The notes under the pieces are model-generated. The model had not been told where the DNA came from, made no database searches, and saw only the letters and a list, made by a program, of their open reading frames with translations. Shown here in pieces: positions 3,470 through 47,136 of a DNA stretch of 64,000 nucleotides. The stretch covers positions 22,479 through 86,478 of IMG/VR virus record IMGVR_UViG_3300021400_000025; one strand, written 5' to 3'. Position numbers and translations under genes: made by a program. Source of the DNA: a virus. Taxonomy: Duplodnaviria; Heunggongvirae; Uroviricota; Caudoviricetes. Position 1 is the first letter of the stretch. Every line of letters begins with the position of its first letter.

Positions 3470-4516
3470 ATGAAGGTTTCGGAGACAACGCAGAAGATTT
3501 ACGATGGAGTATCAAGCATTCTCCAGACGCATGGGCAGAGTCTGACAAAGGCTCAGGTCTATGCAATAGAGAGCATGGTTGAAACCATTGAAGAGTCTGT
3601 AGAGAAAAGATGCCTTGAGACAACGCAGAAGATTCTCGCCAAGAAGGAAAGGTTGGTTGAAGAGGCTAGAATGGATGTGGGAGAAGATCAGCATGGTGTC
3701 TCCGAGGACATGTTGAAGAAGGTCGATTAGCTGGTGGAGAGCAGGATACAGAAGTTGAAGAAGGAGATGCCCCAGGTGATGGATTATGCGAGGATGAAGA
3801 AGCTGGAGAGTTGCGTTGAATCCATCAAGGAGTGCGTGGGCTACAACGCCGACGAACAGGTGGATCGCGTGGCGAAGGAGAGCGCGAAGATGCTCAAGAC
3901 CACCAAGGCTCTGGTTGAGACCCAGGCAAAGCAGATTTCTGAGAAGAGTGCTTCCCTTGTGGAGAGCAGAAAGTCCATAACGGAACTTAAGCAGCAGGTG
4001 AAGCAGATGCAGGCAAAGATAGAAGCGAAGGAAAAACAGATAGTTGAAAGCACGAAGAAGAATTCAGAACTTGTGAACCAGGTTCAGAACCTTCAGAAGA
4101 AAGTTGAAGAGAGCAGGAAGATTAACGAGACGATTGAGGAAAAACGGAAAAGCGAATCATTGAGATATTACTTGGAACAGAAGATAGCGAGCTATCCCAA
4201 GTACGAAGCATCTCTTCTCAGAAAGCATTTCCAGAACGCGAAGAGCAAGGCGGAGATTGACGAGAACTTCCAAAAGGCGTTGTCCATGGTGGCGGAGAAG
4301 AGGGACGCGATGAGGACAGTCCAGGCAATTCCAGTGGCGAAGGTGAACGAGGTTCCGGAGAAGAGCAAGACGATTTCAGGTGAAACTATTGTCAAAGAGA
4401 ATGGTGGTTTCAAGCAGATGCAGACCAAGGAGGTTGACGATTCGTTTGTTGAGGTTGACTTCGACAACGATACCATAAGCCCCTTGGACATGCAGAAGTG
4501 GATGGACCGGCTTTGA
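3470..4516 (+). CDS. Prohead core scaffold protein, gp22-like (348 aa, in-frame TAG at 3728-3730)
   Basis: KKVD*LVESRIQK joins two in-frame ORFs; long E/K coiled coil; directly upstream of major capsid gene. Confidence 0.75.
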
Positions 4517-4556: not shown

Positions 4557-6179
4557 ATGTTTAGAACAAATTCAGATTACCAGAAGAAGCTGCTCAAGCG
4601 CTGGGCGCCGATTCTGGAGAAGGGCACGCCAATTGACAGCGTCGAGAAGAAGCTGATCGTTGCGCAGTGCCTTGAGAACACCCGCAAGGAGTTCTGCAAG
4701 AAGGGTCTCTTCACAGAGGCTGCTCCTACGGCTGTTGGCAACACGGTTGAACTCCGCAAGGACATGCCCGCCTATCAGAACCCAGTCGCCGGCAATGGCG
4801 TGTTGACGGCAAACGACTACATTCTCCCGAACGTGGTCATGCCTATGCTTCGCCGTATTTTCCCAACCCTCATGGCTCATGAGCTGGTTGGCGTCCAGGC
4901 GATGACCGGTCCTACGGGTCTTGTGATGGCTCTCCGCGCAGTTGCTGCCAACCCAGAGCGCGTGGGTCTTCCACAGAACTACGAATTCGGCTATGGCGAG
5001 AATGGCCGCATGAACCAGTCAAGGTTCACTGGCGAGTATGCCAAGAACACCAATGTTGATGTTGGAAGCGATGATTCCAAGCTGTTGAACAAGCTCTATG
5101 GCAAGGATCCTGATCTTGACAACATTGGCGCGTTCTTGAACGGCACCTATGGTTCCTACTCTGGCCGTGGCGTTCCTACAGGCGCTGGCGAGGGCTATGC
5201 CACAGGTGGTGGCTATGCTCAGGGTTGGGCTGACAATGGATATGCTGGTGGCAAGCCAGGTCCTTATGCCGAGGCGACACAGACGCCTCATCACTATGGT
5301 GAAGGTACTCCTGATCCAACCTTCGGCCACTGGAGGAACAACACGTATCCTCAGGCTACGCTGAAGTTCGAGAAGCGTTTCGTGGTTGCCGAGACCCGCA
5401 AGCTGGGTTCCGAGTGGACGCCAGAGGACGCTGAAGACCTTGAGGCAATGCAGGGCATCGACCTTGAGACCGAGTTGACGAACGTGATTTCCTATCAGTT
5501 GGGCGCAGAAATCGACCAGCAGATCAAGGAGAGCATGATTTACGCCGCTTGGGCTGATTCCAAGGTCATTGACGTGAGCCGCCTTGATGGTCTTGACCAG
5601 ATGGGCCGTATCGCCGCGATGTTGACCTTCGTGACCCGCGAGGCGAACGAGATCGCAATCAAGACCCGTCGTGGCGCAGGCAACTTCGTCCTCGCTTCCA
5701 CGACAGTCTGCTCCTGCCTCCAGCAGCTTGGCACGTCCAAGCTCGTCAGCGATGGCAAGACGATGCCTTCTGTCCCTGCTTCTGCAATTGGCGCAATGAC
5801 GAAGGAAGGTCTCATCAACGATGGCCGTCAGCTCCTCGTCCGCGACACCAACACCTTCGGTTCCTATGCTCTTGTTGGCTACAAGGGAACGCAGGCTGGT
5901 GACGCCGGCATCGTGTACTGCCCATACATCCCTGTGACCCTCTACAAGGCTGTCAAGCCCGAGAATGGTCTCAATGTGATTGGTGCCCGTACGCGCTATG
6001 GTCTGGTTGACAACCCATTCGATTCCAAGAACTACTACCAGCTCATCAAGTTCACTGGATTTGACACTGGTTACACACTTGGCACTGACAAGCGCACCTT
6101 CTTTGGTGATCCTATCAACTCTGATGGTTCTGAGTTCGCCGACAGCGCGTTCCAGCATCGTAGTGGTCTCATTGGCTAA
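4557..6179 (+). CDS. gp23: Major capsid protein, T4 gp23 family
   Basis: RWAPILE N-terminus, PMLRRIFPTLMAHELVGVQAMTGPTGLVMALR, ELTNVISYQLGAEID, YCPYIP, TRYGL motifs; strongly biased codon usage. Confidence 0.96.
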   Translation: MFRTNSDYQKKLLKRWAPILEKGTPIDSVEKKLIVAQCLENTRKEFCKKGLFTEAAPTAVGNTVELRKDMPAYQNPVAGNGVLTANDYILPNVVMPMLRRIFPTLMAHELVGVQAMTGPTGLVMALRAVAANPERVGLPQNYEFGYGENGRMNQSRFTGEYAKNTNVDVGSDDSKLLNKLYGKDPDLDNIGAFLNGTYGSYSGRGVPTGAGEGYATGGGYAQGWADNGYAGGKPGPYAEATQTPHHYGEGTPDPTFGHWRNNTYPQATLKFEKRFVVAETRKLGSEWTPEDAEDLEAMQGIDLETELTNVISYQLGAEIDQQIKESMIYAAWADSKVIDVSRLDGLDQMGRIAAMLTFVTREANEIAIKTRRGAGNFVLASTTVCSCLQQLGTSKLVSDGKTMPSVPASAIGAMTKEGLINDGRQLLVRDTNTFGSYALVGYKGTQAGDAGIVYCPYIPVTLYKAVKPENGLNVIGARTRYGLVDNPFDSKNYYQLIKFTGFDTGYTLGTDKRTFFGDPINSDGSEFADSAFQHRSGLIG

Positions 6180-17435: not shown

Positions 17436-17909
17436 TCACCTTGAACCAACGCTCACGATGTATGTCTTGCCGTCGGCTTCAAGTTCCCATTCCCCGGAAA
17501 TGCCAGAATAGTTGGGTTCAGAATACGCCAGTTGATGTCCATCCGGATCAAACAGCACAACTTCTGCCCAAAGAGTGCCATCCTCCCTATCGTTGGTGTT
17601 CACCTTCAAGTCGGCGAAGCAACCATCCTCGAACTGCGCAGTCTCCTTGAACACAGTGGATTCCTCGTCAAAGTCGTATTCGTCATAGTCAATCTCTTCG
17701 TTCAGAAGTTCATCCCACATCTGGAGGTCGTCGGGCCATAGGTTGATTTCAGCGTAGAGTTCTTCACCAGACTCCTTGAACATCAATATCTTGCCCTTGT
17801 TGGTCTTGAACAATCTGCCTGACTCGGATACATACGCCAATTTCCCATACTTGTTCTTGAAGTATGGGCTTTTCTCAAAAGCCTCCTTCGTTATGTTTAG
17901 TCTTTTCAT
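17436..17909 (-). CDS. 'LNITKE' N-module protein 1 (candidate internal head protein)
   Basis: N-terminal ~47 aa shared with 32023 and 46798 genes; acidic unrelated C-terminal domain. Confidence 0.7.
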   Translation of the reverse strand: MKRLNITKEAFEKSPYFKNKYGKLAYVSESGRLFKTNKGKILMFKESGEELYAEINLWPDDLQMWDELLNEEIDYDEYDFDEESTVFKETAQFEDGCFADLKVNTNDREDGTLWAEVVLFDPDGHQLAYSEPNYSGISGEWELEADGKTYIVSVGSR

Positions 17910-30635: not shown

Positions 30636-31604
30636 ATGAAGAGAATTGTAAAAGAGAGCTACGAGGTTTCTCCTGAACTTGAAAAACGTCTGAACTCCAT
30701 CCTATCTGACGAGTTCTTGGCTGCTGAGGCGTATCGTCTGGCGATTGTCGCGATGAAGGGCAACAAGCAGCATAGGCTTGAGGAAATAGCTGAGAAGAAT
30801 GGGGAGGACGAACTTGAAGACCACTTCAAGAACCTCTATGAGTGGATGCAGTCAAAGGGAATCAAGGTTGTGACTGACCGGGACGAAATGGCTCAAATCA
30901 CGAACGGCTCGATTCTGAAGTTCAAGGATGGAATGTCCACGAAGGAGATTGTTGACCAGTTGATTCTTTCCGAGGAAGAAGCCATTGACATCTACGAAGA
31001 CACGATTCCACACACTGAGCTTGACTTGAATGTGATGCTTTCTGGCTTCTTGAAGGACGAGAGGGAGCATCTCAAGGAACTTGTGGATTGCCGCGACGAA
31101 ATGGGTGGAAAAGCCCCCATTGAGGACAAGGTAATTGATTTGGACGATGAACCAGACGAAGAAGAAAATGAAATGGAACAAATTAACGAGGATGCAAAAA
31201 TGATTCACAAGGATAAACCCTTCAAAGTAAGGAATATTGATTGGGATGCTGACCTCCCAACAGGACCAATAAAAGTGGAGTTTGGCGCACCACTGGAGTC
31301 CAGATCTGGTGACGAGAAATATAACATCACTTTGTGGCTTGAAGAAAAATATGAAGCAAAAGTTCTGGATTTTGACTTCAAGCGCGTTCGCAACTTTGAC
31401 GAATATTCTCCTGACTATGTGGTGAGCAACATAGAATGGGATGTCAATCTTCCAAAGTCAACAGTGGTTAATGTGCCTTATGATGTGGTCAAGGCTGGCT
31501 ACGATGAAGTTGAGGAATACATTTCCGACTATCTGTCTGACACATATGAGTTCACCCATTATGGGTTTGACTGCCCACAGCTTGATAGAATGTATAATTC
31601 ATGA
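30636..31604 (+). CDS. Ferritin-like four-helix-bundle protein fused to two tandem small domains
   Basis: DEFLAAEAY..EDELEDH..EEEAIDIY..DEREH diiron-type E/H pattern; duplicated VxNIxWDxxLP..LxxxY..FD domain. Confidence 0.75.
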   Translation: MKRIVKESYEVSPELEKRLNSILSDEFLAAEAYRLAIVAMKGNKQHRLEEIAEKNGEDELEDHFKNLYEWMQSKGIKVVTDRDEMAQITNGSILKFKDGMSTKEIVDQLILSEEEAIDIYEDTIPHTELDLNVMLSGFLKDEREHLKELVDCRDEMGGKAPIEDKVIDLDDEPDEEENEMEQINEDAKMIHKDKPFKVRNIDWDADLPTGPIKVEFGAPLESRSGDEKYNITLWLEEKYEAKVLDFDFKRVRNFDEYSPDYVVSNIEWDVNLPKSTVVNVPYDVVKAGYDEVEEYISDYLSDTYEFTHYGFDCPQLDRMYNS

Positions 31605-31930
31605 ACTGGTTAAGACAGATATTTGGAGCGGTTTTGGTGGTTGGACTTCTTTCTGGTTGCATGAACCTCTATACACGTTGCCCATTCACCGACAAGAAGA
31701 TTGAGGACACATATCAATCCACACAGGAGACATTTGCGTTGTCCTATGTGGTGATGTTCCCACAGGTTCTTCCAATGAACGAATCTGATGGATTGGTGTG
31801 GCAGAACATCTTCACCATCCCAGTTGGATGCCTTTGCTTCGTGGATGTGGCGTTGGAAGGGGTTGTTGACACCATTTGCTGGCCATATGATTCGCATGTT
31901 TCAAAGAAGCACAAAAAGGATTTTGAATGA
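31601..31930 (+). CDS. YceK/YidQ-like lipoprotein
   Basis: Lipobox LLSG|C; DVALEGVVDTICWPYD family-like motif. Confidence 0.65.
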   Translation: MNWLRQIFGAVLVVGLLSGCMNLYTRCPFTDKKIEDTYQSTQETFALSYVVMFPQVLPMNESDGLVWQNIFTIPVGCLCFVDVALEGVVDTICWPYDSHVSKKHKKDFE

Positions 31931-32022
31931 ATTTGTGTAAATAATATTCGAGTTGAACATTCAATGACTAGTCACATGAGGGTGTTCACAAGAGACAACT
32001 AAACTCTATAGAGGAAATCAAA

Positions 32023-32850
32023 ATGAAGAAATTGAACATTACGAAGGAACAGTACGATGAGAGCAAGTATTTCAACCAGAAGTACGGTGCCCTCAAGTTT
32101 GTTTCTGAGAGCGGCAAGCTCTACAAGACCGACAAGGGCGTTGTGATTGCCCTTGAGTCCGCGAAGGACGACGATGATGAAGAGCCAAAGGGCGACGATG
32201 AGGAGCCAAAAGGTGATGATGAGCCGAAGGGTTCTGATTCCACTGAAGGCGCTGACGAGGTGAAGGATGTTGTGAAGGACGTTCTCGTTGGTGTCATTGA
32301 CACGGTGAAGGACATCGCTGCTGACAAGGGCATTGAACTCCCTGGCGAAGACGAGGGTGATGCTTCTGACGATGATGACGAGGAAGATGAAGTTGACTTT
32401 GACGACCTTGACGACGATGAACTTGACGATCTTCGCGATGGTGAGCTGGAGATTGGCGAGGGTGATGAGTGCAAGGATGGCGAGTGCAAGGGTGGCAAGT
32501 GCCTTGACAGGGAGTGTGGTGGCAAGAAGCCAGCATTCCGCGAGAGCGCAGCCCGCAAGGCTCGTCTGGCAAAGGTGCGCGAGTCCCTTCGCCGTCGGAT
32601 CCGTGCAAGGAAGGTTCTTGAATCCATCCGTCGTCGTCGCATGGTGAAGAAAATGATGGAGGCTCGCAAGGCTCGCATTGCCAAGAAGGTTCTTGAGTCT
32701 GCCCGCGAGCGCCGCCTTGCCAAGAAGGTGATGGAATCCAGGAAGCTCCGCGCAAGGAAGGTTCTTGAGTCCATTCGCAGACGCAGACTTGCCAAGAAGG
32801 TCATGGAGTCTCGCAGACTTCGCGCACGCCGAGCAAGGCTTGCGAAATAA
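32023..32850 (+). CDS. 'LNITKE' N-module protein 2 with acidic linker and Arg/Lys-rich ES repeats
   Basis: Shared N-module, D/E-rich middle, repeated KV(L/M)ES(I/A)RRRR; GTAAATA at 31937-31943; strongly biased codons. Confidence 0.8.
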   Translation: MKKLNITKEQYDESKYFNQKYGALKFVSESGKLYKTDKGVVIALESAKDDDDEEPKGDDEEPKGDDEPKGSDSTEGADEVKDVVKDVLVGVIDTVKDIAADKGIELPGEDEGDASDDDDEEDEVDFDDLDDDELDDLRDGELEIGEGDECKDGECKGGKCLDRECGGKKPAFRESAARKARLAKVRESLRRRIRARKVLESIRRRRMVKKMMEARKARIAKKVLESARERRLAKKVMESRKLRARKVLESIRRRRLAKKVMESRRLRARRARLAK

Positions 32851-32878
32851 TTAGGTTGCAAAATCTAATTGAAAGCAG

Positions 32879-32911
32879 AAAGATGCTTCCTTTACAGGAG
32901 GCATCTTTTGT
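32879..32911 (+). terminator. Terminator overlapping the next promoter
   Basis: AAAGATGCTTCCT-TTAC-AGGAGGCATCTTT stem-loop + TGTT. Confidence 0.8.
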
Positions 32912-32919
32912 TGTATAAT
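32891..32919 (+). promoter_or_regulatory. Sigma70-type promoter for metK operon
   Basis: TTTACA-N17-TATAAT; the -35 lies in the terminator loop. Confidence 0.65.
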
Positions 32920-34549: not shown

Positions 34550-34567
34550 TGGTAAATAGTCAATGTT

Positions 34568-37500
34568 ATGAATTCATCTTTGACAAGACCATAGTCCCTT
34601 TAGGAACTCTACAAGACATACTTCTCCTTCGCCAATAGGTTCAAGTTCACCGACCTCCTTCGGAACTACATCCAGAACGAGGAGTGGAAGGACAAGTCGC
34701 AGGAGCCTGTTTGGGAGTTGCTTTCCAAGATCTCTGACGATATTGGGGCTGTCCTCACAGACGACATAGTGAACTACACAAGGAATGTGGTTGACATCAA
34801 CACATGCAAGGTGTCGGCGCTGTTTGAGCATGGCAAGGCGATCATGTACAATCTGGAGCATCTGGTGAATTCCCTTGCGTTTCTCCCCAAGAGGATGCAA
34901 TGCCTTGTCGACATCTTTTCGATAAACCCTGAATATCTGGTGGGCAACTTCAAGAACCACATCCTCTCTGACCAGGTTGTTCGCGAGATTCTAATCTATC
35001 TTCGGGAGAACTCCAAGAATGGGAGTCTTCTTGGGAACGACATCATGGACAAGTTGATGGAGGATCCGCATGGTCTTCTGGACATGGATGTGTATCGTAA
35101 TTTCGTGGTTGAGCTGTTCTACACCACCATTGTGCAGGCTCTGTCTGCCGGTTACAACACAGGTCTGCATCCACAAGACGAGGACACATAGACGATAGCG
35201 TCCAACATGTTGTTCTTCGAGCGGGAGCATCAACAGGAGATTGTTGCCAAGTTGGATTAGTACAAGTCATGGGTGGACAAGTTCATCTCCAATGAACGCG
35301 ACCACAAGTGGAATTCCCCAGACATGCAGATGTGGGATGTGGTGGAGACCATCAAGAACCAGAAGAGAATTTCCCCAAAGTTCAACCCATTCAAGATTGC
35401 CGACCACATCTTCCTCAATGGACTGAACCCCCAGAACAGTCTTTCCGAGGACGAAATGGATTTGGTGGAGAAGGTTCTTGAATGGAGATGGAAGACCAAA
35501 TATGACTATGAAAAGGAGTCTTTTTCATCCGACTTGTCCACTCAGGGCGCGTATTGGAAGGAGTTGGAATTCTGTGAATGGGTGAAGATGGTGATGTATG
35601 TATGCAACAATCTGAACAACTTCAACCAGGCTGTCATGTCATATGATGCGCCATCCAACAGATTCCTGTGCGATACTGGGACACTTGATGACTCCAGCGT
35701 GAAAGTTGTCCAGATGTTCTGCGAGGATGGGAAGCATGTGGTGGAGAATCCTTCCACAGGAGAGGTGGCATTGAACCGAGACATGATATTGAAGGTGGCC
35801 AAGTTCATGTGCGACTACGCATTCCACATCATGGATGTCAGGGAGAACATGAAGACCATCGCCCAGAAGCATGCGATGCGTGGCTCTTCCGCATTGCTTG
35901 TGCATCTTGTCAACGATTATCTGATGAAGGAGTTGCCGTTTGTGCGCGATGCCTTGCAGGAAGGGGATGTCCAGGACAACAGAATCAGATTTGGATGGGA
36001 GGTTTCTCCTCAACAATACAAGAACCATGGAAATGTCCATGTGCTTGAATACATGGACGACAACGAATACTTCAACATAGACCCAACAGAGGATGTTCGG
36101 TTCACCAACACCACCAACGCCAGATATTGGGAGCAGTTGGAGGGGATGGAGTATGACGATTCACTGGGCGTGTTCACCAAGGGTCAGATAAGGAAATTCT
36201 ACAGCGAGGTGCTGGGGGTGGGGAGGCTTCAGCCCAACAAGGCGAAGGACTACGATTACATACACGACTTCTTGGTGGATTTGTTCAAGATTGGCGCGAA
36301 TCCCATCAAGAAGAACGATGATGAAGATGGACTGGTGAACCCAATAGATGTCCTTGCCAACAATCTTGAAGAGGAATATGGCTACACGAAGCAGGATAGA
36401 TTGAACGTCCAGAACAATGTGGATTTGAGGAAAAGCCAGGAAATGCAGTTCATGGAGTATTTCGGTGGCAATCTGGACAATTTTTCAGGTCGGGGAATGT
36501 ACGACTACATGAACAACAGATTGTTCTATTGGAAGAACGATACATATGCATCCCATGTCCTGCATCCATTCATGTACAACTTGAAGCTGTGGAATCGGCT
36601 CAACAACATCATTGTCAATGGCTACAAGGACTATGCCAACGATTTTCTCCAGGACTACATGTTGTCCTCCAAGGTCAAGTTCGATGAGTTGTTTGGGAAA
36701 TTTGGCGAAAGCAGGAATTTCTGGAAGTACAATGTCATGGACTTGACTGGCTACACGACCAGATACGAGGCCGCGATCAAGGACGAACACAGGGACGATG
36801 ATGCTGGCACAGTAAGCAGTCTGACAGGTTATGATGGTCTGTTCTATCCAGACGCCGCGAAGGAGTTCCTTGAGTTGATGACAAGTGTGGGCGATGGGAA
36901 TTTTGAATTCAAAGACGAATTTTTCACTGGGGACGTGAGTGTATATGGGGAAGATGGAGACTGCTATTGGGATGATGGCGATGAAATTGAAAACAATGAT
37001 GACGAAATTGAGCACTGCTTCATCAATGGACGGGACGATTTCATCGCGCAGATCTATTCCGTGTATTGGCAGGTTGAGCGAACAACCTTGGTGGAAAAAA
37101 CGAGGGAGAGAAAAACTGGTGGTGGGTGGTATTTCAAAAAGGTTTCCGAGGACGATTCCTTCTACACCAAATGGTATTCCCACTTGAACTACACACGTTC
37201 TGAATACCAGAAGATTGCGATGCAGCTCTGGTATTGGAGGGACAGAATCAAGGAATTGATAACAACCGAGTATCCAATCAAGAAATATTGCCTTGACATA
37301 CAGGGGAACTCGCTTGTTCTGGTATCAACCTTCACATCAGACGACAAGGACAGCAATCCATATCTGATAGACCTTCAGTTGACGCAGACAAGGGTTGTTG
37401 ATGGCCTGGGCGTGGCTTCCACAAGAAATGCCAACAAGAATGTGTCGTTCTGCAGCAATGCCCTTCGCATGCCATCTGAGATGTGGGTGAGATGGAAGTC

Positions 37501-40500
37501 CAATCCCATTGCCATTCCTGCGTTCGACGTGTGGTACGATGTGAAGACTGGAGACATTGAGTTCGACAAGAGGTTCAGAAACGACTCATCCAACAACAAG
37601 GAGTTTGGGCAGTTGACCCATACAGACAACGATTGCAACGACAGCTTCAAGGTGGTGCTTTCAAGGTGGCGCGAGACATATGGAACTTTGCATGGCGAGT
37701 TGTTTGGACCCGGCCACAACAGATTCCCTGTGTTCTTCGATATGGAGCAGTCGGCGAATGTGTTGGCTCTTGCGTCGTGGTACATCATGCCTGAAGTGGA
37801 TAATGATGGGATTGTCCTTCTGGATGGGTTTGGAAGATCCATGGGGGCAATGTGTGGCAAGAATCCACTGCATGTGGTGTCGGTGGAGCGTCCATATTCC
37901 TCCACATTGGAGTACAATTGGACGAAGTATGAATCTGAAGTCTTCCCCACATTGAATGATAGTTCGGAGTATTGCTTTGACGCATATCACATCTGCCCCG
38001 CAGATGGCTCAATTCTTCTGCCGATGTATGGCTTTGAATGCTCTGATTCAGAAGACAACTTCAAGCAGATTTTGAAGTGGAAGATGTATGTCATCCCAGC
38101 GAGAAGGTTGAAGAGAAAGGACTTTTCTGCCAATCCCAGAATGATCCTCTTGGATGGGAAAATGGACTTGAACAAGGAGATTCATCTGGATTCATCCAAT
38201 TCGCCAAAGACGCTTTTCTTTGGGCACAACGTGAAGGTGTGCCGCAACACCAATGTGGTTTTCGCCCCATGCGACAACAATGGCGTGAACATGCTGAGGT
38301 TGGCGTTAATGGGCACTTTCGTGGATGGACAGGAACTTGATTCGTTCAAGTCCAGCTCTTGCCACGCCAAGACGAGATACGAGTTTGATTCGCGCAATGT
38401 GCAAGAGCTGTCCATGTTGAAGGGGAGGTATTTCGATCAGAGCGCGACACCTCAATATATTGATGATGGCATAAGGAGAAGGAAGTTCAACTCATATGAT
38501 TCCCTTGACAAGTACGCATTGGTTGTGGATTTCAAGATTCCTTTGGATGAACATGAAGTTTTCAAGCAATTGGGTGGACAACCCACTGGCATGGCATACA
38601 ACATATTGGGTGATGCGGGATGCATTCCACATTTCGCCAACCAGTCCTTGGTGAAGTATGCTGAATCTGATGGTGGCACCGCGTACACTTGGAAGAATGC
38701 CTTTTTGAATGGCAAAAACCACATGCAATTCGAGTTGTTGGGGCTTGATGATGTGAATGTCGCCAAGACCTATGACTTCATGCAGAGGATGGTGGTGGAT
38801 GATTTGACCGACAACTGCCAGACATTGTTGTGTCCGGCCAAATTCATGGACGATATATACCGCATATGGTGTTGTTCAAGGACTCGAAAGACAAGGTTTG
38901 GGGATTTCCCATATGACATGTATTTCGAGAGCGAGTACAAGGACTATGCCAACCCCAGATTGGAGTTCTACCCCGGCGAGAATGCGATGACATGGACTCC
39001 ATAGGGCGAGGATTTCGCATTGGACATTCCAGAGGGGCAGGATGTGCGCGCTGCGCTTGACAACACATATGTCTCAATCCTCAGAGCGTCTGATGGGATA
39101 ATCCAGAACGAAAAGAGATACATCTTGAGACCTACGCCAATCTCCCAGTTCATCTTTGGTGGAACTGATGCATAGAGTGGTGGGTATGTCAAGTGCAACC
39201 TCTCCAAGTGGCAGTCTGCCAACATAGTGGGCAATCAAAGAAGACCCGCGCAGACAATATTCACCGGAACCCAACCTCCATTCAACTACGACAACGATGG
39301 CGAGAGGATGTATTCTCTTCCCGAGGAACTGCAATATGGCAATGGCATATGTGGGGTGTCCGAGATTGGCTTGTCTGTGGATGTTGTGGATGTTGTGGTG
39401 AACCATGTTGCGATGGAGGACGACTTCCAGCCAATCTACAACGAAGATGGAAGCAGAAAGACCATTTCCAAGACGGTAAAGGCGGTGAAGCCAACTGTGA
39501 GGTTCAAGAAGTTCACGATGCCTGAGAACCCATCATTGTCCGATGTGGTGCAGAACAATGTGAGCGTCATAGCCCCAGGGGAGATTCTGGTGGTGTTTTC
39601 GCGCAAGAATGTGGACGACATAGCGAAGTATCACATCCTCAGCAAATCGTCCAATCTGTTCTTCTATGGATCTCTTCCAAAGAGTCCAGCCCAGCATCCC
39701 AACGAGATTCAATATTCTGACTTCAAGGTTGACACCAGCCTTAGATTGGAGCAGACATCTGAGACATCATGGAGATCCATTTCGGTGGATTCAGATGGAA
39801 GACCGTTGTTGGAGTTCAATCTGGATGATGTCAAGTCCAAGCGCAACGACAATCTCCCACCATATCATGTGGAGGTTGGTGGACAGGAATGGATTCTTCA
39901 ACAAGGTTCAGACTATCCTGTGAATGGCTACAAGAAATTGGAGATGGAGGACTTGCCAGAGATTCCGGCCCATAGGGGGAACACTGCGGCATACGCCATC
40001 CCAGACAAAGGTGGATTTGTGCTTGCTCACAAGGTCAAGGAAGTGCCCATGGGATATCTGGACTACCTCTATGTCAAGAATGGGGCGTTGGCGTTCAAGA
40101 TAAGCGAGGAGTCTGAATCCTTCTCGGAGACATTCTCCATGACACCCCCATTCTATGTGGACGAGGTGTTGAAGAACAAGTTGGAGGACTTGAACGATGT
40201 TTAGATTCTCCAGGATTCTTCAACGTTCATCCACCAGAGCGAAGATCCCAGCAAGGTAAGTGGTTGCTCTGCGCTCAATCCAGTGGCGATGGACGCGGTG
40301 ATTGACTATGGCATCGAGGAGGCGGATTTGGACGATTCCAGACAGATAATCTGCACTGAGGATGGAAAGGCGATCCAACTGGACAACATGGACATGAAGA
40401 CCAGACTTCTTCTTCAGCTTGATGAGAACGAGATTGACGATTATCTCAAGATATACACCAACTATGTGAGGGTGGACGACAAGCATGGGGATTGGCACTA

Positions 40501-41587
40501 TGATCTCTACTTCAACATCCAGAATCTGTTCAACCCACCATTTGAATACATCTCCTCCATCACACATCAACCAAATGTGCTTGTCCTCCCAGATTCTTAT
40601 CTGCGTCTCAGTGGGGACAAGTTCAAGAAGGTGTATGACGAGAATGGGGTTTGGACGCACAATGAGATAGACCCAGAGAAGGTTGAGCAGTTGAAGAAGG
40701 GTGGCAAGCTGTCCCTGTATGGGCAAATCAAGGCATTCTCCAACGACAGGCTGGTGGGCGTCAGATTGGTCAAGTTGTTCACCTACACAATCCACAACAT
40801 TTCGGACGACAAGCCAAAGTTCCTTATTGAGAAGACATTCGACATCACCAAGTCCTCCTTGACATCCTCGGAGGGGAATCCTCTGAAGATTGAGTTCTCT
40901 GATGTGATGTGGCAGATGAAGCCAGAATGGTACGAGGATGACCAGTTCAAGGTGTTGAAGGAAGATGTTGTTGTGGTGCAGCCTGTCAAGATACACTATG
41001 ATTGGAGTGCCACAGACGATAATAGAATAAGTAGAATATCATTTGACATAGTCAACGACATGATTGACTTCGACAATTGCCCTGAGTTGTGTGGATATGA
41101 CGAACATGTGCATGCGTTGAAGAGATGGGATGGCGAATCCACCCACACGCACTACGATAGATGGAGCGACAGATGCATGGAGCTGAAGGTGGATCCAACC
41201 ACCAAAATCCCCAGGATGACCTTGACTTGGGATGAGGGTTGTGGGTACAACTTCGAGACTGTGTATTTGAAGTGGAGAGTTCCAAAGGGATTCAACGCGA
41301 TGGACATCATGGACAGGCTTCAGGGATATGCGTTCTCATCCACTGCCGAGAATGTGGTGGTGGATTGCCACAACCCAAGTTCGCATCCAATGGAGATTGT
41401 TCCAGGAAGGATTGTGATGCGCGTTCCCAAAAAGGGCGAGATGTATCTTGGTCTGGAGCATTCCACCACGCATAGGAAGAATGGATTTGTCTTGAAGGGT
41501 CTAGCAAGCACTTTGAAAGAGGCGATAGGAAAGGTTGTCTCTGAATCTGAAATGAAAACAAACGCACAGAATAGAGAGGTGAAATGA
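34568..41587 (+). CDS. Giant 2339-aa probable virion protein (seven in-frame TAGs)
   Basis: One frame from ATG 34568 to TGA 41585-41587 interrupted only by TAGs at 34592, 34601, 35189, 35258, 39002, 39173, 40202; GTAAATA at 34552-34558. Confidence 0.8.
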
Positions 41588-41588
41588 A

Positions 41589-42461
41589 ATGGGATATGCA
41601 GAAGTGAACAAGGAATTGGTTTCCAAATACAAGGTTGACGACACCATATTGGAATCCTACTTCAAGAATGCAAGCAACCAGAAGGTTGATGGGGTGGTGT
41701 TTCCATTGAGAATCGACAACAGGCAATATTGCTCCCCAACCGACTACCAGGGAAGCAAGCCGAGTTGCTGTGGCTACTCCACGGCGCAGATATTGGAATC
41801 CCTCAACTGGGCTAGAACAGGAAAGATTGTGCAGATGGATGCGGATCAGATATACGCAAAGTCCAAGGAGACGGACAAGTAGATGGGTCAGGGTGGAACA
41901 TATCCAGACTTGGCCATGGTGAAGGGGCTTGAACTGGTTCCATGGGGGTGTCAATATGCGTTGAAGACTTCCAATTCAGACGATGTGGATGTGTTGAAGC
42001 GGGCAATCCACCAGAACATGCTCGTGTCAGTGAACATGAACGTCACCAGAGACATATACGATTTGGATGGGGACAACTTCGTGTACAATGGCAATGGCAA
42101 CAAACTTGGTGGACATTCAATGGTGTGCTGTGGATATGACGAGGAATCGAAGATGCTCATCATGCAGAACCATTGGGGGACAATATGGGGGTTGAAGGGC
42201 TTCTTCCTGTGCCCATATGACGTGTGGAGAAAGCAAAACTCTTTGACTTGCTGGTATGAAAGGGTGGAAGCCACCACTTCACATGCGAAAAGGAGCAAGA
42301 CCACCAAGGTTGATGTGTCAAAACCCGAGAAGCCAAATGCTGAAAAGCCAAATGCCGAGGAACATCTTCCTGGCAAGAAGGAATCCACCACTCCTCCAGA
42401 TGTGGGTGTTTCAAGCAAGGAAATTGTAAATAGTATCACAACCAACATTCAACAAGGGTAA
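41589..42461 (+). CDS. Papain-like (C1) cysteine peptidase (290 aa, TAG at 41880-41882)
   Basis: QGSKPSCC (catalytic Cys) before the TAG; GGHSMVCCGY and QNHWG (His/Asn) after it. Confidence 0.85.
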
Positions 42462-42467
42462 AGTAAA

Positions 42468-45400
42468 ATGAGAATAGTCATAGACAAGGATGTTTCAGAG
42501 ATTCAACTTCTTCAGGAGTCATATGAAAAGAGCAAGCCATCGTACAAGGTTCTTGCGGTGGAGAATGGCGAGAAGTTCGTGTATGGAACGAAGATTCGCA
42601 ACATCAATGAAGCAGTTGACGCTGTGTATGACATTGCGTGGGACGAGAACTTCAACGATTGCCAATCTGAGATTGTGGAGGTGTTTGGCGAGAGCGAACA
42701 TGTGATTTGGTCTTCTGACCCCAAGGTGCAGGTTTGCGAGTCAGTGTTGTTCGTTGAAGCTGGAGACAACAAGGACGGCAGCACGGCGAACAAGGACGCC
42801 AAGACTGGTCAGAACCAAAAGGGTTTCTTTGGCAAGTTGAAGGATGCCGCTGGAAAGGCTGCTGCAGGTGCCAAGAAGGCTCTTCAGGGACTTGCCAAGG
42901 GACTTAACATAGTTGGGGCGATGACGAAGCAGTTCTCAAAGGACGCTCTCAAGAAGTGGAGAGAGGGAGGATTGTTCAACAAAGAAGGACGCATCACTGG
43001 TCTTGGCTACAAGGTCATGACGGGACAGGTGAAGAACACCATTCCAGTGGACACTGGAAACAAGAACGACGACATCACACAGGCTTGGAAGGTTGCGCAG
43101 TCAAATGCCATGAATGCCCTCAAGAAGCAAGGATATACCGTGAATGGCGAAGTCAAGGCAATTGTCAAGACCGACAAGGATCCAATCACATTGTCTGCTG
43201 ATGTGACTGACAAAGATGGCAACGCACAGACAATCGAGTTCAATCAGGATGGAACAATGGTTGATGGTGGTGCCCAGAATGCCCAGAATGGTGGCGAAGG
43301 TGCTAACGCCAATGGTGGTGGAAACAATGCTGCTGGAGCCAATGGAAAGGATGGTGGTGGAGCTGGTGGCGCAAACACCCAGCAGATAACTCCTGACCAG
43401 GCGCAGAAGAACCCCAAGGCAGCTCTTGGAAACCTCGCCACGCGCGTGGCGAACCTTGAAAGGGAGGTTGGAATTGCGGCAGAATCCAAGTGGAACTACA
43501 ACAACGAGCAGAAGTTCGCCAAGAAGGATGGATATGAGAGGCAGACCATCAAGAGGTTCTTCAACGAGATGAACGATGAGTCTGTGAAGAACATCAAGTT
43601 CATCCGCCCAGATGGCACATTCAAGTTGTATGACATCTCCAATGGATCATAGGCGTATTCTGAATTCAAAAAAGACTTCAGGGAGTCCACATAGAAGGTT
43701 GAGAAGTCTGGTGACTTCAAGGAATGTCGGGTTGTCATTGAATCTTCTGGAAGCAGAAGCAAGTTGAATGGCTTCAAGTTCTCCGACTTTGGCGTGGCTG
43801 ACGATTTCGATTCAGATTCCAAGACCATCATCATCAGGGAGAGCGTAATCAAGAATGTTCCTGAAAAGCCAGATGGTAAAAAAAAAGCAAATGAACCACA
43901 ACATGAATCCATTGTGAATGAGTCCTCGATTGAGGGCATCTCCAAGAATCCTGAGCCAAATGGATTCACATTGGAGTTGGACAAGAAAGATCCACTTGAA
44001 GAGGTCAAGTCCCTTCTTGCAGCCATGAACAAGTACAATGGATTCGACAAGAAGAAGATTGATGACATCCAGGATGGTTCAATATCAGATGGCGTGACAA
44101 CATATCCAGACGTTCCAACTTTTGAGACTCCAAAGAAGCAGGAACCACTGGAAACTCCAAAGCAGGAAACGCCAACAATTGAAACTCCAGATGTTGTGAA
44201 GGAAGCCGAGGGCGATGATGATGCTGGTGGTGGAGGAGACGACGCTGGTGGAGACGCTGACCCATTTGCTGGTGGAGGAGACGATGGTGGTGGTGATGAT
44301 GCTGGTGGTGGCGACGATCCATTCGCTGGAGGAGGAGATGACGCAGGTGGGGGAGATGATGCTGGGGGAGATGCAGGCCCATTCGCTGGTGGTGGTGACG
44401 ATGCAGGTGGTGGTGGAGACGCAGGCGCCGCAGACATGGGTGGTGGAGGAGATGCCGCAGTAGATGGAGCCACAGAAGACAATCCCACCTCAGGAGAACC
44501 TGCACCAGACGATGCAGTGAACACTGACGCCCAAGACAATCCCAAGTCCCAATACAACATCAATGTGACCAAGCCTTTCAACCAGGACGAGAATTTCTCC
44601 CTCAATGATGAGGAGCAGAAGGAGTTCTTTGGGAAGATTGACCAGTTGGTGAAGATCCCCGACATGGACAACTATTCGCTTTACCTCTACCAGATAACGC
44701 CAGAGAACATGAACCTTGACGATGTTCACTACATCGAGGCTCTTTACCAGTTGTCTGTGAAGTTGGGGCTGCTTGAGGACATCTACGCCGACTCCAACTT
44801 GCTTGACAAGTACAGCTCCTACAAGTATTCTGTTCTGAAGGATGGGGAGGATGACGCGACCCAGGGGGAGGACGCATTGACTGTGACCGAGGGGACGACC
44901 AAGGTTCAGGACGATAACGAAAAGAAGGCTGCTGAACTCAACAAGAAGATGAAGCAGAAGAACGACGACAGGCGTGGTTCAGCATGGACTAAACTTGACA
45001 AGGACAAGAATGGCGTTGACAAGCCTGTGATAATAGACACAAGGAAGGATGGCTGGACATTCGACGGAAAGGATAATGACAAGAAGTTGATTGACTCCAC
45101 CGACGAAGGCAGTTTCCATGGACTTGGTTGGATTGCCACCTTCAAGGCAATGCAGTTCGGCTCCCCAAGGTATCTCTCCCTCTACATCAAGAGGAATGGG
45201 GATGCAAAGGCAGAGGAACAGTGCAGAAAATACCTTGAGAAGCTCTCCTATACGGAGATTGAGTTCGTGAACATCGACGAGGTTGACCCATACGAGTATG
45301 TCTACAGAATGGGTCAGGGAATGAAGACCCCAGAGACTGTGAGGACGGAGAAGTATGCGAACGAGGAGGTTCCAGTGACCTATTTCGAGAACAACGAAAC

Positions 45401-45848
45401 CAAGGTTCCAGAGTCAATCCCAGGGGACATCAAGCGCGATGTCAAGAGGGTGATAACCAAGTTGAACGCGGAAATCCGTGGGACAAAGCAGTTCAACTTC
45501 TTGAAGGAATGTGGCGTTGAGAAGCCACAGCTTGACCATCTTGAGTTCTTGACGCACTACAAGACAGCGCAGGTCAACGAGACATTGAGCGAGACGACCT
45601 ACAAGTTCGTGCTGAAGAAGAACGATAGCATGATGAGCAGGATGTTCTTCTCCAACATGAAGGAGAAATTGTTCAGGTATCTTGGGACATTCGCAACCAA
45701 GTACAACATGGAATGTGGATGCGAGGCAACGCCAACTGCAGTGACAATCAGCTTCATGAGAAGCGATCTTGGAAATCCTGGATACGATCTTGAGACAATG
45801 GTGGACGCAGACGTTGCGCTTCCAGAGACAACAGCGGACCAGATTTGA
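42468..45848 (+). CDS. Large multi-segment late protein (1126 aa, TAGs at 43650 and 43692)
   Basis: Two ORFs join in frame; G/N/A- and G/D-rich low-complexity linkers; GTAAATA at 42426-42432; several xES motifs. Confidence 0.75.
44213..44465 (+). repeat. Coding low-complexity GGDDAGG(DPF)AGG repeats
   Basis: Repeated GATGATGCTGGTGGTGG-like units inside CDS 42468..45848. Confidence 0.8.
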
Positions 45849-45859
45849 CAGAGGATGAC

Positions 45860-46774
45860 ATGAAAATGAAAAGAAGAAGAACAATCAAGGAAAGTTCCAG
45901 CGAGGCGTTGATTAAGCAGGCGTTGGAAGCGGCAATCAAGGCAAAGAATCTGCTGGACGATGCCGCGAACTCAATACGGGACGCAGTTGGCGAGACATTC
46001 CTTTTCGCAAGGCTTGACTCCCATTCAATGGATCTTGACGACACCATTGACGATATCAAGGGGGTTCTGAATGGAACTGTTGACCCCACTGACGATACTG
46101 TTGATGCCACTGATGGTTTCGATAATCCCTTTCTTGAATCCAAAAACAAGTTCGTCAAGGAGGAATCCTCATATAACGACAAGGCATTGCAGAAGTTGAT
46201 GGCGTTGGTTGAGTATTATGGAGACCTACGCCAGGGTTGGGGCCGCACACTGGCCACAGGACAAGACACTGAATACTACAAGAAAAAGGCGCAGCAGACT
46301 CTTGACGACATCAAGGAACATGCAACGCCATACATGGCATACACAGCATATGATGGCAAGGAGGAGTTCGAGGAAAGTGGCTCGGCGGAAGGTGAGACCG
46401 AGTGGTTTAACAATCATGGCGACATGAAGAAGAATCTTCCAATGGACTGCATTTTGGAGTGCTCGTCTGGTGGAAGTGTTGACGATTCTGTTGACTATTG
46501 GGTGAACAAGTTGAATTTCCATGCCCCAACCGAAAAGGGGTTGAGTTATGTTCGGGAGTATGGTCTTGACGACATTGAACCCGAGGATGTTGACAAGTAC
46601 GTTCTTTGGATAATGTGCGGAAACATCAAGGAAGAGGCCTATGAGTTCTGCCGCGATGGTTCTGAATGGGATTATGTTGACAAGGACGCATATCCCGAGG
46701 ACATGGATGATTGGGGAGAGGAAGATTGGGATAGATTCCAGGATGAAGTCGCAATCTGCCACCTTGGGATGTGA
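45860..46774 (+). CDS. Acidic multi-domain hypothetical protein (MKRRRTIKES tag)
   Basis: GAGGA RBS; segments separated by IKES, FLES, VKEES, FEES. Confidence 0.7.
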   Translation: MKMKRRRTIKESSSEALIKQALEAAIKAKNLLDDAANSIRDAVGETFLFARLDSHSMDLDDTIDDIKGVLNGTVDPTDDTVDATDGFDNPFLESKNKFVKEESSYNDKALQKLMALVEYYGDLRQGWGRTLATGQDTEYYKKKAQQTLDDIKEHATPYMAYTAYDGKEEFEESGSAEGETEWFNNHGDMKKNLPMDCILECSSGGSVDDSVDYWVNKLNFHAPTEKGLSYVREYGLDDIEPEDVDKYVLWIMCGNIKEEAYEFCRDGSEWDYVDKDAYPEDMDDWGEEDWDRFQDEVAICHLGM

Positions 46775-46797
46775 TTTTAACCAATGAGGAAACTGAA

Positions 46798-47136
46798 ATG
46801 AAGAAACTTAACATAACGAAAGAGAGATTTGAGAAGTCCAGGTACTTCACGAAGAAGTATGGCAAACTTGAATATGTGTCTGAATCTGGCAGACTTTTCA
46901 AGACGAACAAAGGCAAAGTGCTGATGTTCAAGGAATCTATCGTGGATGATGATGACGATTATGCTCGTTTTGCAATGAGTGACTTGACTGATAACATAGA
47001 GAAATACTTGAAGTCAAATAAAGACGAGCTTGATTTGGAGTCTGTTGAAAGAGTTATGGACTACAACACCGCCTTGCTTCTGACATTCAATACAGGGAAC
47101 AAAATCAAGATTTTGTTTGACGATGAGTTAGACTGA
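46798..47136 (+). CDS. 'LNITKE' N-module protein 3
   Basis: MKKLNITKERFEKSRYFTKKYGKLEYVSESGRLFKTNKGKVLMFKES shared module. Confidence 0.75.
   Translation: MKKLNITKERFEKSRYFTKKYGKLEYVSESGRLFKTNKGKVLMFKESIVDDDDDYARFAMSDLTDNIEKYLKSNKDELDLESVERVMDYNTALLLTFNTGNKIKILFDDELD

Follow-up and report, generated by a model that had tools for sequence, protein, structure and literature searches.

An acid-balanced, arginine-rich late protein of rumen T4-related phages as a candidate precursor of head-internal basic peptides

The closest described systems are the internal proteins of bacteriophage T4. These are basic, are found in about 1000 copies per head and have only a cleavable targeting sequence in common, the head protease gp21 cutting after Glu (PMC3012670, PMC9026906, PMC5694885). 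IPI, IPII, IPIII and Alt are unrelated proteins encoded by scattered late genes; they have a common N-terminal leader ending in hydrophobic-x-Glu, and after processing they are basic and located alongside the DNA (PMC3012670, PMC9026906). The T4 core protein gp22 (and gp67 and gp68) is highly charged and helical, contains many protease motifs and is cut into short peptides by gp21 (PMC5694885). Cleavage after Glu is displayed by the proteases of the T4, phiKZ and SPN3US types alike, and the propeptides of SPN3US, phiKZ and 201phi2-1, which carry an A/S-x-E motif, are longer than those of T4 and have several cut sites, their N-termini being conserved among diverged paralogs (PMC5694885). A shared N-terminus on unrelated late proteins, a gp21-type protease and a helical, highly charged sequence with several motifs ending in Glu have counterparts in the phage described here, in which the locus of interest encodes a protein of 275 amino acids.

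Two systems outside the phages are comparable in concept. In adenovirus, pVII and pre-mu (pX) are converted by the viral protease into Arg-rich proteins and peptides that condense DNA, a maturation protease inside the capsid thus cutting a precursor into short, genome-bound Arg-rich peptides, as is proposed for the present protein. Adenovirus is, however, a eukaryotic virus, its enzyme is a cysteine protease with another motif, and its precursors show no sequence relation to the present protein and have no charge-matched acidic domain. The anionic pro-pieces of defensins and of eosinophil major basic protein neutralise a toxic polycation until proteolysis. The idea of charge neutralisation is the same, but these are eukaryotic secretory proteins and the likeness is one of analogy only.

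The locus is found in a window of 64,000 nucleotides. This window spans positions 22479-86478 of a viral record that is complete at 418,068 bp and carries direct terminal repeats; coordinates below refer to the window unless the full record is named. The source phage is T4-related. Its genome encodes a gp23-type capsid protein, a family-B polymerase (PolB), a topoisomerase II, a baseplate wedge protein and a gp21-type protease, and its relatives come from ruminant gut samples. The gene encoding the 275-aa protein is real, and it is conserved as a single-copy gene in a clade of T4-related rumen phages of about 400 kb. A longer antisense ORF covering the gene was rejected as an artefact of composition, since both the codon-usage model and more than 160 metagenomic homologs (E<=0.01) favour the plus frame. 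In one relative, G001, the ortholog was absent from the genome search at E<=1e-20 and was identified among the ORFs carrying the N-terminal domain. When it comes to known families, Pfam and PHROGs gave nothing meaningful for the 275-aa protein (a 13.9-bit Vps27 match and a low-complexity PHROG match), the ESM Atlas contained no usable match, and no Pfam, PHROG or structural family could be assigned to any part of it. Nor did tblastn and megablast searches of cultured phages give a match; no cultured relative carries the family.

The modules and sequence strings that a first-pass annotation of this region had described are all present in the protein (Table 1). KVRESLRRR is found at residues 184-192, KVLESIRRRR at 197-206 and 246-255, KVLESARERR at 222-231, and KVMESR at 235-240 and 259-264. 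The N-terminal part, hereafter the N-module, is lysine-rich. Residues 46-170 contain 34 Asp and 20 Glu and have a net charge of -39, while residues 171-275 contain 31 Arg and 15 Lys and have a net charge of +37; the full-length protein has a net charge of +1. The annotation had proposed that the acidic segment is a built-in neutraliser, and the charge balance is indeed kept: 116 orthologs, 211-396 aa in length, average about -40 in the acidic part, about +32 in the basic tail and -2.9 +/- 6.3 over the whole protein, which makes the neutraliser a trait of the family. The charges of the two halves are weakly correlated (r = -0.28, uncorrected for phylogeny), and the argument therefore relies on the mean net charge being close to zero.

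The acidic region contains one conserved amphipathic helix, residues 77-102 (32251-32328), as well as an IELPGE motif. In the form (D/G)-I-E-L-P-G-x-E (32327-32347) the latter is conserved in the orthologs, and it is also found at the extreme C-terminus of one paralog (413378-415078 of the full record); no further called protein of the 418-kb genome contains it. The Cys cluster at the junction between the acidic and the basic part is possibly a metal knuckle. C155 and C160 are conserved in at least 90% of the orthologs and C165 in 54 of 62, giving three Cys conserved in at least 87%. CPxCG is common among the orthologs here; they contain between 3 and 6 Cys, and AF2 models this segment with low confidence.

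Table 1. Position and strand of the features discussed, in window coordinates, with the basis for each assignment.
Feature	Position	Strand	Basis
gp22-like scaffold gene, 348 aa with TAG as Gln, directly upstream of the capsid gene	3470..4516	+	helical, E-S count
gp23-type major capsid protein, invariant LFTE↓A(A/G)P at residues 52-56	4557..6179	+	alignment of relatives
N-module paralog, 157 aa, acidic cargo	17436..17909	-	genome search
Late-promoter-type motif TGTAAATA, 87 nt 5' of ATG	31936..31943	+	motif count, upstream regions of paralogs
Shine-Dalgarno-like AGAGGA, 7 nt 5' of ATG	32010..32015	+	read from sequence
CDS, ATG to TAA, 275 aa, no in-frame TAG	32023..32850	+	ORF list, codon model, homologs
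N-module, residues 1-45, ends ALE↓S	32023..32157	+	AF2 pLDDT 90, paralogs, column profile
Acidic region, mostly disordered	32158..32469	+	model, charge count, ortholog alignment
Cys cluster C-x4-C-x4-C-x4-C, residues 150-165	32470..32517	+	ortholog alignments
Basic tail, residues 171-275	32533..32847	+	AF2, charge count, 62-ortholog alignment
72-nt tandem duplication, 2 copies, 77% matches	32685..32826	+	repeat analysis
Intrinsic terminator hairpin, then T-run	32874..32912	+	-25 kcal/mol, z = -5.1 vs shuffles
sigma70-like promoter TTTACA-17-TATAAT, 11/12, overlaps terminator	32891..32919	+	promoter scan
N-module paralog, 112 aa, last gene of late operon with E-S-enriched proteins	46798..47136	+	genome search

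The reading that we favour, with somewhat less than even confidence, is that the protein would be an abundant late precursor which enters the prohead and is matured there as the T4 internal proteins are, being cut into basic, DNA-bound peptides. The N-module, a candidate prohead-targeting pro-domain, would dock the precursor to the assembling core, and the acidic half would keep the +37 tail off nucleic acid, or from aggregating, before assembly. A gp21-type protease would then cut after each Glu, and cuts at all the predicted sites would yield eight basic peptides of 11-13 residues (net +3 to +7) plus a 129-residue fragment with a net charge of -39. As the DNA enters the head, the peptides would remain with it and partly screen its charge, while the N-module and the acidic piece would be expelled or kept as counter-ions. 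That the protein might be called a polyprotein is something we infer from the spacing of the motif. About 1000 copies of the tail, a T4-like copy number which is assumed here, would by simple arithmetic balance only some 4% of the genome's 836,000 phosphate charges. This points to local screening or an aid to packaging, as for the T4 internal proteins, and not to full condensation of the protamine type. The first-pass annotation, which had called the protein protamine-like, thus went too far on condensation, a few percent of the DNA charge being all that would be neutralised, while at the level of sequence its interpretation gains support from the expression signals, the codon bias, the protease, the motif in the scaffold, the capsid site and the charge balance.

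A different reading, which we regard as unlikely, is that this is a late protein that does not enter the virion. It would then be a cytoplasmic nucleic-acid binder or chaperone, engaged in DNA or RNA compaction, in aiding packaging or in targeting the host nucleoid or ribosome; the acidic half would be auto-inhibitory or mimic nucleic acid, and the shared N-module would serve for partner binding or oligomerisation and have nothing to do with the capsid. The genomic position is in its favour and counts against the head-internal reading. The gene is found 27 kb from the scaffold gene and outside the head module, among genes for replication and metabolism: PolB, a ferritin-like gene and a small lipoprotein gene lie on its 5' side, and a 173-aa gene followed by SAM synthetase (metK) on its 3' side. 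This gene order is kept in relatives of 400-434 kb. The ferritin-like protein (30636-31604, plus strand), which has a C-terminal duplicated domain of about 50 aa, adjoins the gene in the relatives too, and the probable lipoprotein (31601-31930, plus strand) is 109 aa long with a hydrophobic leader ending in LSGC.

The expression signals and the codon usage, on the other hand, argue against a protein unconnected with the head. The [G/T]GTAAATA motif occurs 106 times in the 418-kb genome, about 35 being expected, and it is found 31-87 nt upstream of five of the nine N-module genes, the remainder being located inside operons. A GAGGAA-like box is found in all the N-module paralogs. The 275-aa gene has its own copy of the late motif, as had been claimed for it, as well as the strong terminator, and the next gene has its own promoter; as read from these signals, the gene is predicted to be a separate transcription unit. 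Transcription of the 173-aa gene and of SAM synthetase would start from the sigma70-like promoter on its 3' side, and the late gene is thus wedged between units of an early type. In the genome as a whole, 63% of the Arg codons are AGA or AGG and about 25% are CGY. Among the 151 genes with at least 12 Arg, the capsid gene ranks first in CGY usage (88%), the 275-aa gene third (70%) and the tail sheath gene seventh, and the capsid-like codon bias seen in the first reading of the sequence therefore holds.

Metatranscriptome contigs from the same sample as the assembly cover 31977-32787, nearly exactly the predicted transcript, and 0.68 of the sampled words of the scaffold and capsid stretch are found in the same RNA run (word index); as contigs can neither rank genes nor exclude DNA carry-over, the RNA goes no further than being consistent with transcription together with the late genes. 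No weight was given to the absence of RNA contigs over the PolB, ferritin-like and metK genes in one run, nor to a 21-nt RNA-contig "joint" (32387/46787).

The N-module bears on the two readings in both directions. Folded alone from 74 sequences, it is predicted by AF2 to form a beta-alpha-alpha-beta-beta-beta domain (pLDDT 90). It heads nine otherwise unrelated proteins in the 418-kb genome, with cargoes that are mostly acidic, and two complete relatives contain nine and six copies. Among 1.8 billion representatives searched, 353 clusters match the 275-aa protein at E<=0.001; most of these match residues 1-50 only, nearly always with their own N-terminus, and the proteins are 51-549 aa long. 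The profile built from 260 sequences displays invariant positions including S14, F17, K20-Y21-G22 and S28-E29-S30-G31. Conservation ends at (L/F)-x-E-S, where the acidic sequence follows, and the end reads ALE↓S in the 275-aa protein and its orthologs and F-(K/R)-E↓S in the paralogs. Copies within the genome have about 16 synonymous codon differences out of 47, indicating selection on the protein and not on the DNA. Foldseek searches of a viral library with the domain model gave a best E-value of 0.08 and no assignment, a VIA search gave a best Z of 2.9 with generic beta-alpha-beta halves, and Pfam returned only stray Zn-ribbon matches for the domain sequences and for 50 full-length proteins carrying it. 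A modelled complex of the N-module with scaffold residues 89-348 scored 0.00, the scaffold partner itself being poorly folded, and was given no weight in either direction.

A folded domain is unlike the leader peptide of T4; the N-module resembles the T4 targeting decapeptide only in starting with MK. This counts against the head-internal reading, as the domain could serve another shared purpose, and a non-virion role is also favoured by the failure of searches against structural-protein families to give a match. On the other hand, the N-module is found on unrelated cargoes, mostly small and acidic or with a Zn-ribbon or leucine-rich repeats, a pattern typical of delivery tags, and it always ends with a motif of the protease type. 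The occurrence of one N-terminal domain on many unrelated late proteins, by analogy with the T4 leader, strengthens the proposal that the protein is head-internal.

Some further features of the paralogs were observed. A repeated internal linker, ES-x-KKFG-x-KFSE-(S/A), flanked by Glu-Ser, is found in the paralogs at 340251-341435, 416076-417023 and 413378-415078 of the full record (all on the minus strand), and it resembles the N-module core KKYG-x-LKFVSES. At 388740-389780 and 413378-415078 of the full record the N-module is in frame with the upstream ORF, with no stop between them, and one paralog reads through two in-frame TAGs. A 414-kb relative encodes an N-module protein with about ten BspA-type leucine-rich repeats as its cargo (G001:197400-198400, minus strand).

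For the head-internal reading, a protease with a suitable motif is needed in the same phage. The gp21-type head protease (224572-225309 of the full record, TAG read as Gln) is full-length, matches PF03420 at 43.8 bits, which is above the cut-off, and is 32-35% identical to annotated gp21 proteases over 92-99% of its length; a phmmer search of PDB sequences gave nothing at 0.01. The genes for the scaffold and the protease contain in-frame TAGs, as does that of one N-module paralog. The scaffold protein contains 10 E-S where 3.7 are expected (p 0.004), LVES, IVES and AKES among them, and most of the sites are kept in nine relatives, with an occasional change from S to A. T4 gp23 is cleaved at FLTE↓A, a site that the LFTE↓A of the present capsid protein resembles. 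A HMMER alignment to T4 gp23 placed the cut near TVE↓L, which is non-conserved, and the invariant LFTE↓A is preferred as the candidate site. E-S enrichment is also found in the protease gene itself and in the late operon at 41589-47136. Hydrophobic-x-E-(S/A) would thus make a coherent motif for the protease of this phage; with such close relatives (capsid identity 73-89%) and with conservation extending to the remainder of the tail, the motif evidence is supportive and not decisive.

In the tail of the 275-aa protein, Glu followed by Ser or Ala is found eight times at a spacing of 11-13 residues, with V/I/M at P3 or L/M/R at P2. The whole protein contains the dipeptide ES 10 times compared to 1.7 expected from its composition, the strongest excess among 454 called genes, although the excess comes partly from the tandem duplication, which gave rise to the last four repeat units, so that the copies are not independent. 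This counts against the head-internal reading. At the five best-aligned sites the Glu of [VI]-[RKLM]-E-[SA] is found in 57-62 of 62 orthologs, with Ser or Ala adjoining; the repeated ES sites that had been noted in the sequence are thus present and nearly invariant. However, it is the whole tail, not E-S alone, that is well conserved in the 62 orthologs, down to the choice between K and R. This suggests a more specific structure or partner than would be needed for a generic polycation; it counts against the head-internal reading and is in keeping with a non-virion protein that has a specific target.

Conservation of the entire tail beyond the motif would also be expected if the protein were packaged as an internal or ejection protein and lost only its N-module, perhaps with the acidic part, while the basic helix of about 100 residues stayed whole as in IPII and IPIII. 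We consider this quite unlikely. The periodic V-x-E-S would in that case be the repeat unit of a helix, held for instance by Glu-Arg salt bridges (i/i+3-4), and not a series of cut sites. AF2 predicts the tail as one uninterrupted helix of 104 residues (pLDDT 93-98), and the T4 internal proteins are intact and basic once the leader is removed (PMC9026906). Such a protein would, however, leave the Ser or Ala after Glu, nearly invariant and without an obvious helical role, to be accounted for, and the same motif is enriched in the scaffold, whose T4 counterpart is cut many times (PMC5694885). The late-expression signals and the shared N-module support this reading and the favoured one alike. The hydrophobic moment of the helix at 100 degrees is 0.12, near the minimum, with the hydrophobic positions spread around the helix, and no amphipathic, heptad or hendecad pattern is found that could explain why these positions are conserved. 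The lack of both an amphipathic and a heptad pattern argues against a coiled-coil role and against a membrane-active cationic peptide (disruptin-like), a reading that was set aside. The E-S sites fall within the confidently predicted continuous helix, and in this model cleavage is neither forbidden nor supported; the T4 scaffold protein gp22 is also helical.

It is very unlikely indeed that the protein is an auxiliary scaffold or core component which helps to build or size a very large prohead and is then fully degraded and expelled: the numerous cut motifs at even spacing, which recall the scaffold, the helical tail and the status of a single-copy core gene of the clade would fit, but peptides of such high positive charge ought to stick to the incoming DNA and not to leave, and a separate gp22-like scaffold gene adjoins the capsid gene.

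If the protein is a head-internal precursor, it differs from those described in several respects. Its leader is a folded domain of 45 residues, while that of T4 is a peptide of 10 residues (PMC9026906). A spacer of about 125 acidic residues balances the basic part, which is Arg-rich and repetitive and has eight further cut motifs. The T4 internal proteins are hypervariable and fast-changing, while the present gene is conserved and single-copy, a difference that counts against the head-internal reading. There is no homology to gp22, the phage has a gp22-like gene of its own, and the tail is strongly basic. SPN3US, phiKZ and 201phi2-1 belong to another lineage and have another motif, and their propeptides, of 80-160 residues, are not found on hundreds of unrelated cargoes. 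The concept of T4-type head-internal proteins and their protease is known. For the combination seen here, in which a folded leader of 45 residues and an acidic mask precede Arg-rich repeats that carry cut motifs at regular intervals, no described counterpart was found in the literature. It is doubtful that we are dealing with a self-neutralised "polyprotamine", a phage parallel to mu/pVII of adenovirus, from which the head protease would yield about eight genome-bound dodecapeptides, with a new folded capsid-targeting domain of 45 residues that would load varied cargo throughout the clade.

If the head-internal reading is true, the N-module and the E-S motif would provide a rule, readable from sequence, for recognising head-packed proteins in uncultured megaphages, and phage engineering, which uses the short T4 tag, would gain a folded targeting domain. 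It would also be the first phage case of Arg-rich, genome-bound peptides generated by a protease, with a bearing on how genomes of 400 kb are packed and ejected, and the acid-masked polycation would offer a small module, open to testing, by which nucleic-acid binding is regulated. Should the reading prove false, what is left is a late protein family that is conserved, and probably highly expressed, in abundant rumen phages.

Some other late genes of the phage deserve mention. When TAG is read as Gln, several ORFs at 34568-41587 (plus strand) merge into one late protein of 2339 aa with seven in-frame TAGs, beginning just 3' of a GGTAAATA motif at 34551; no family match was found for it. The late operon encodes a cysteine peptidase of the papain family (Peptidase_C1/C39-like; 41589-42461, plus strand) with an in-frame TAG, which directly precedes an E-S-rich protein of 1126 aa and is possibly a second processing enzyme or an ejected one. 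A second set of proteins has another common N-terminus, MK-I/L-R-S/T-DYVSNSSSSSF, and is encoded at 188066-189061, 198237-198803 and 199915-200394 of the full record.
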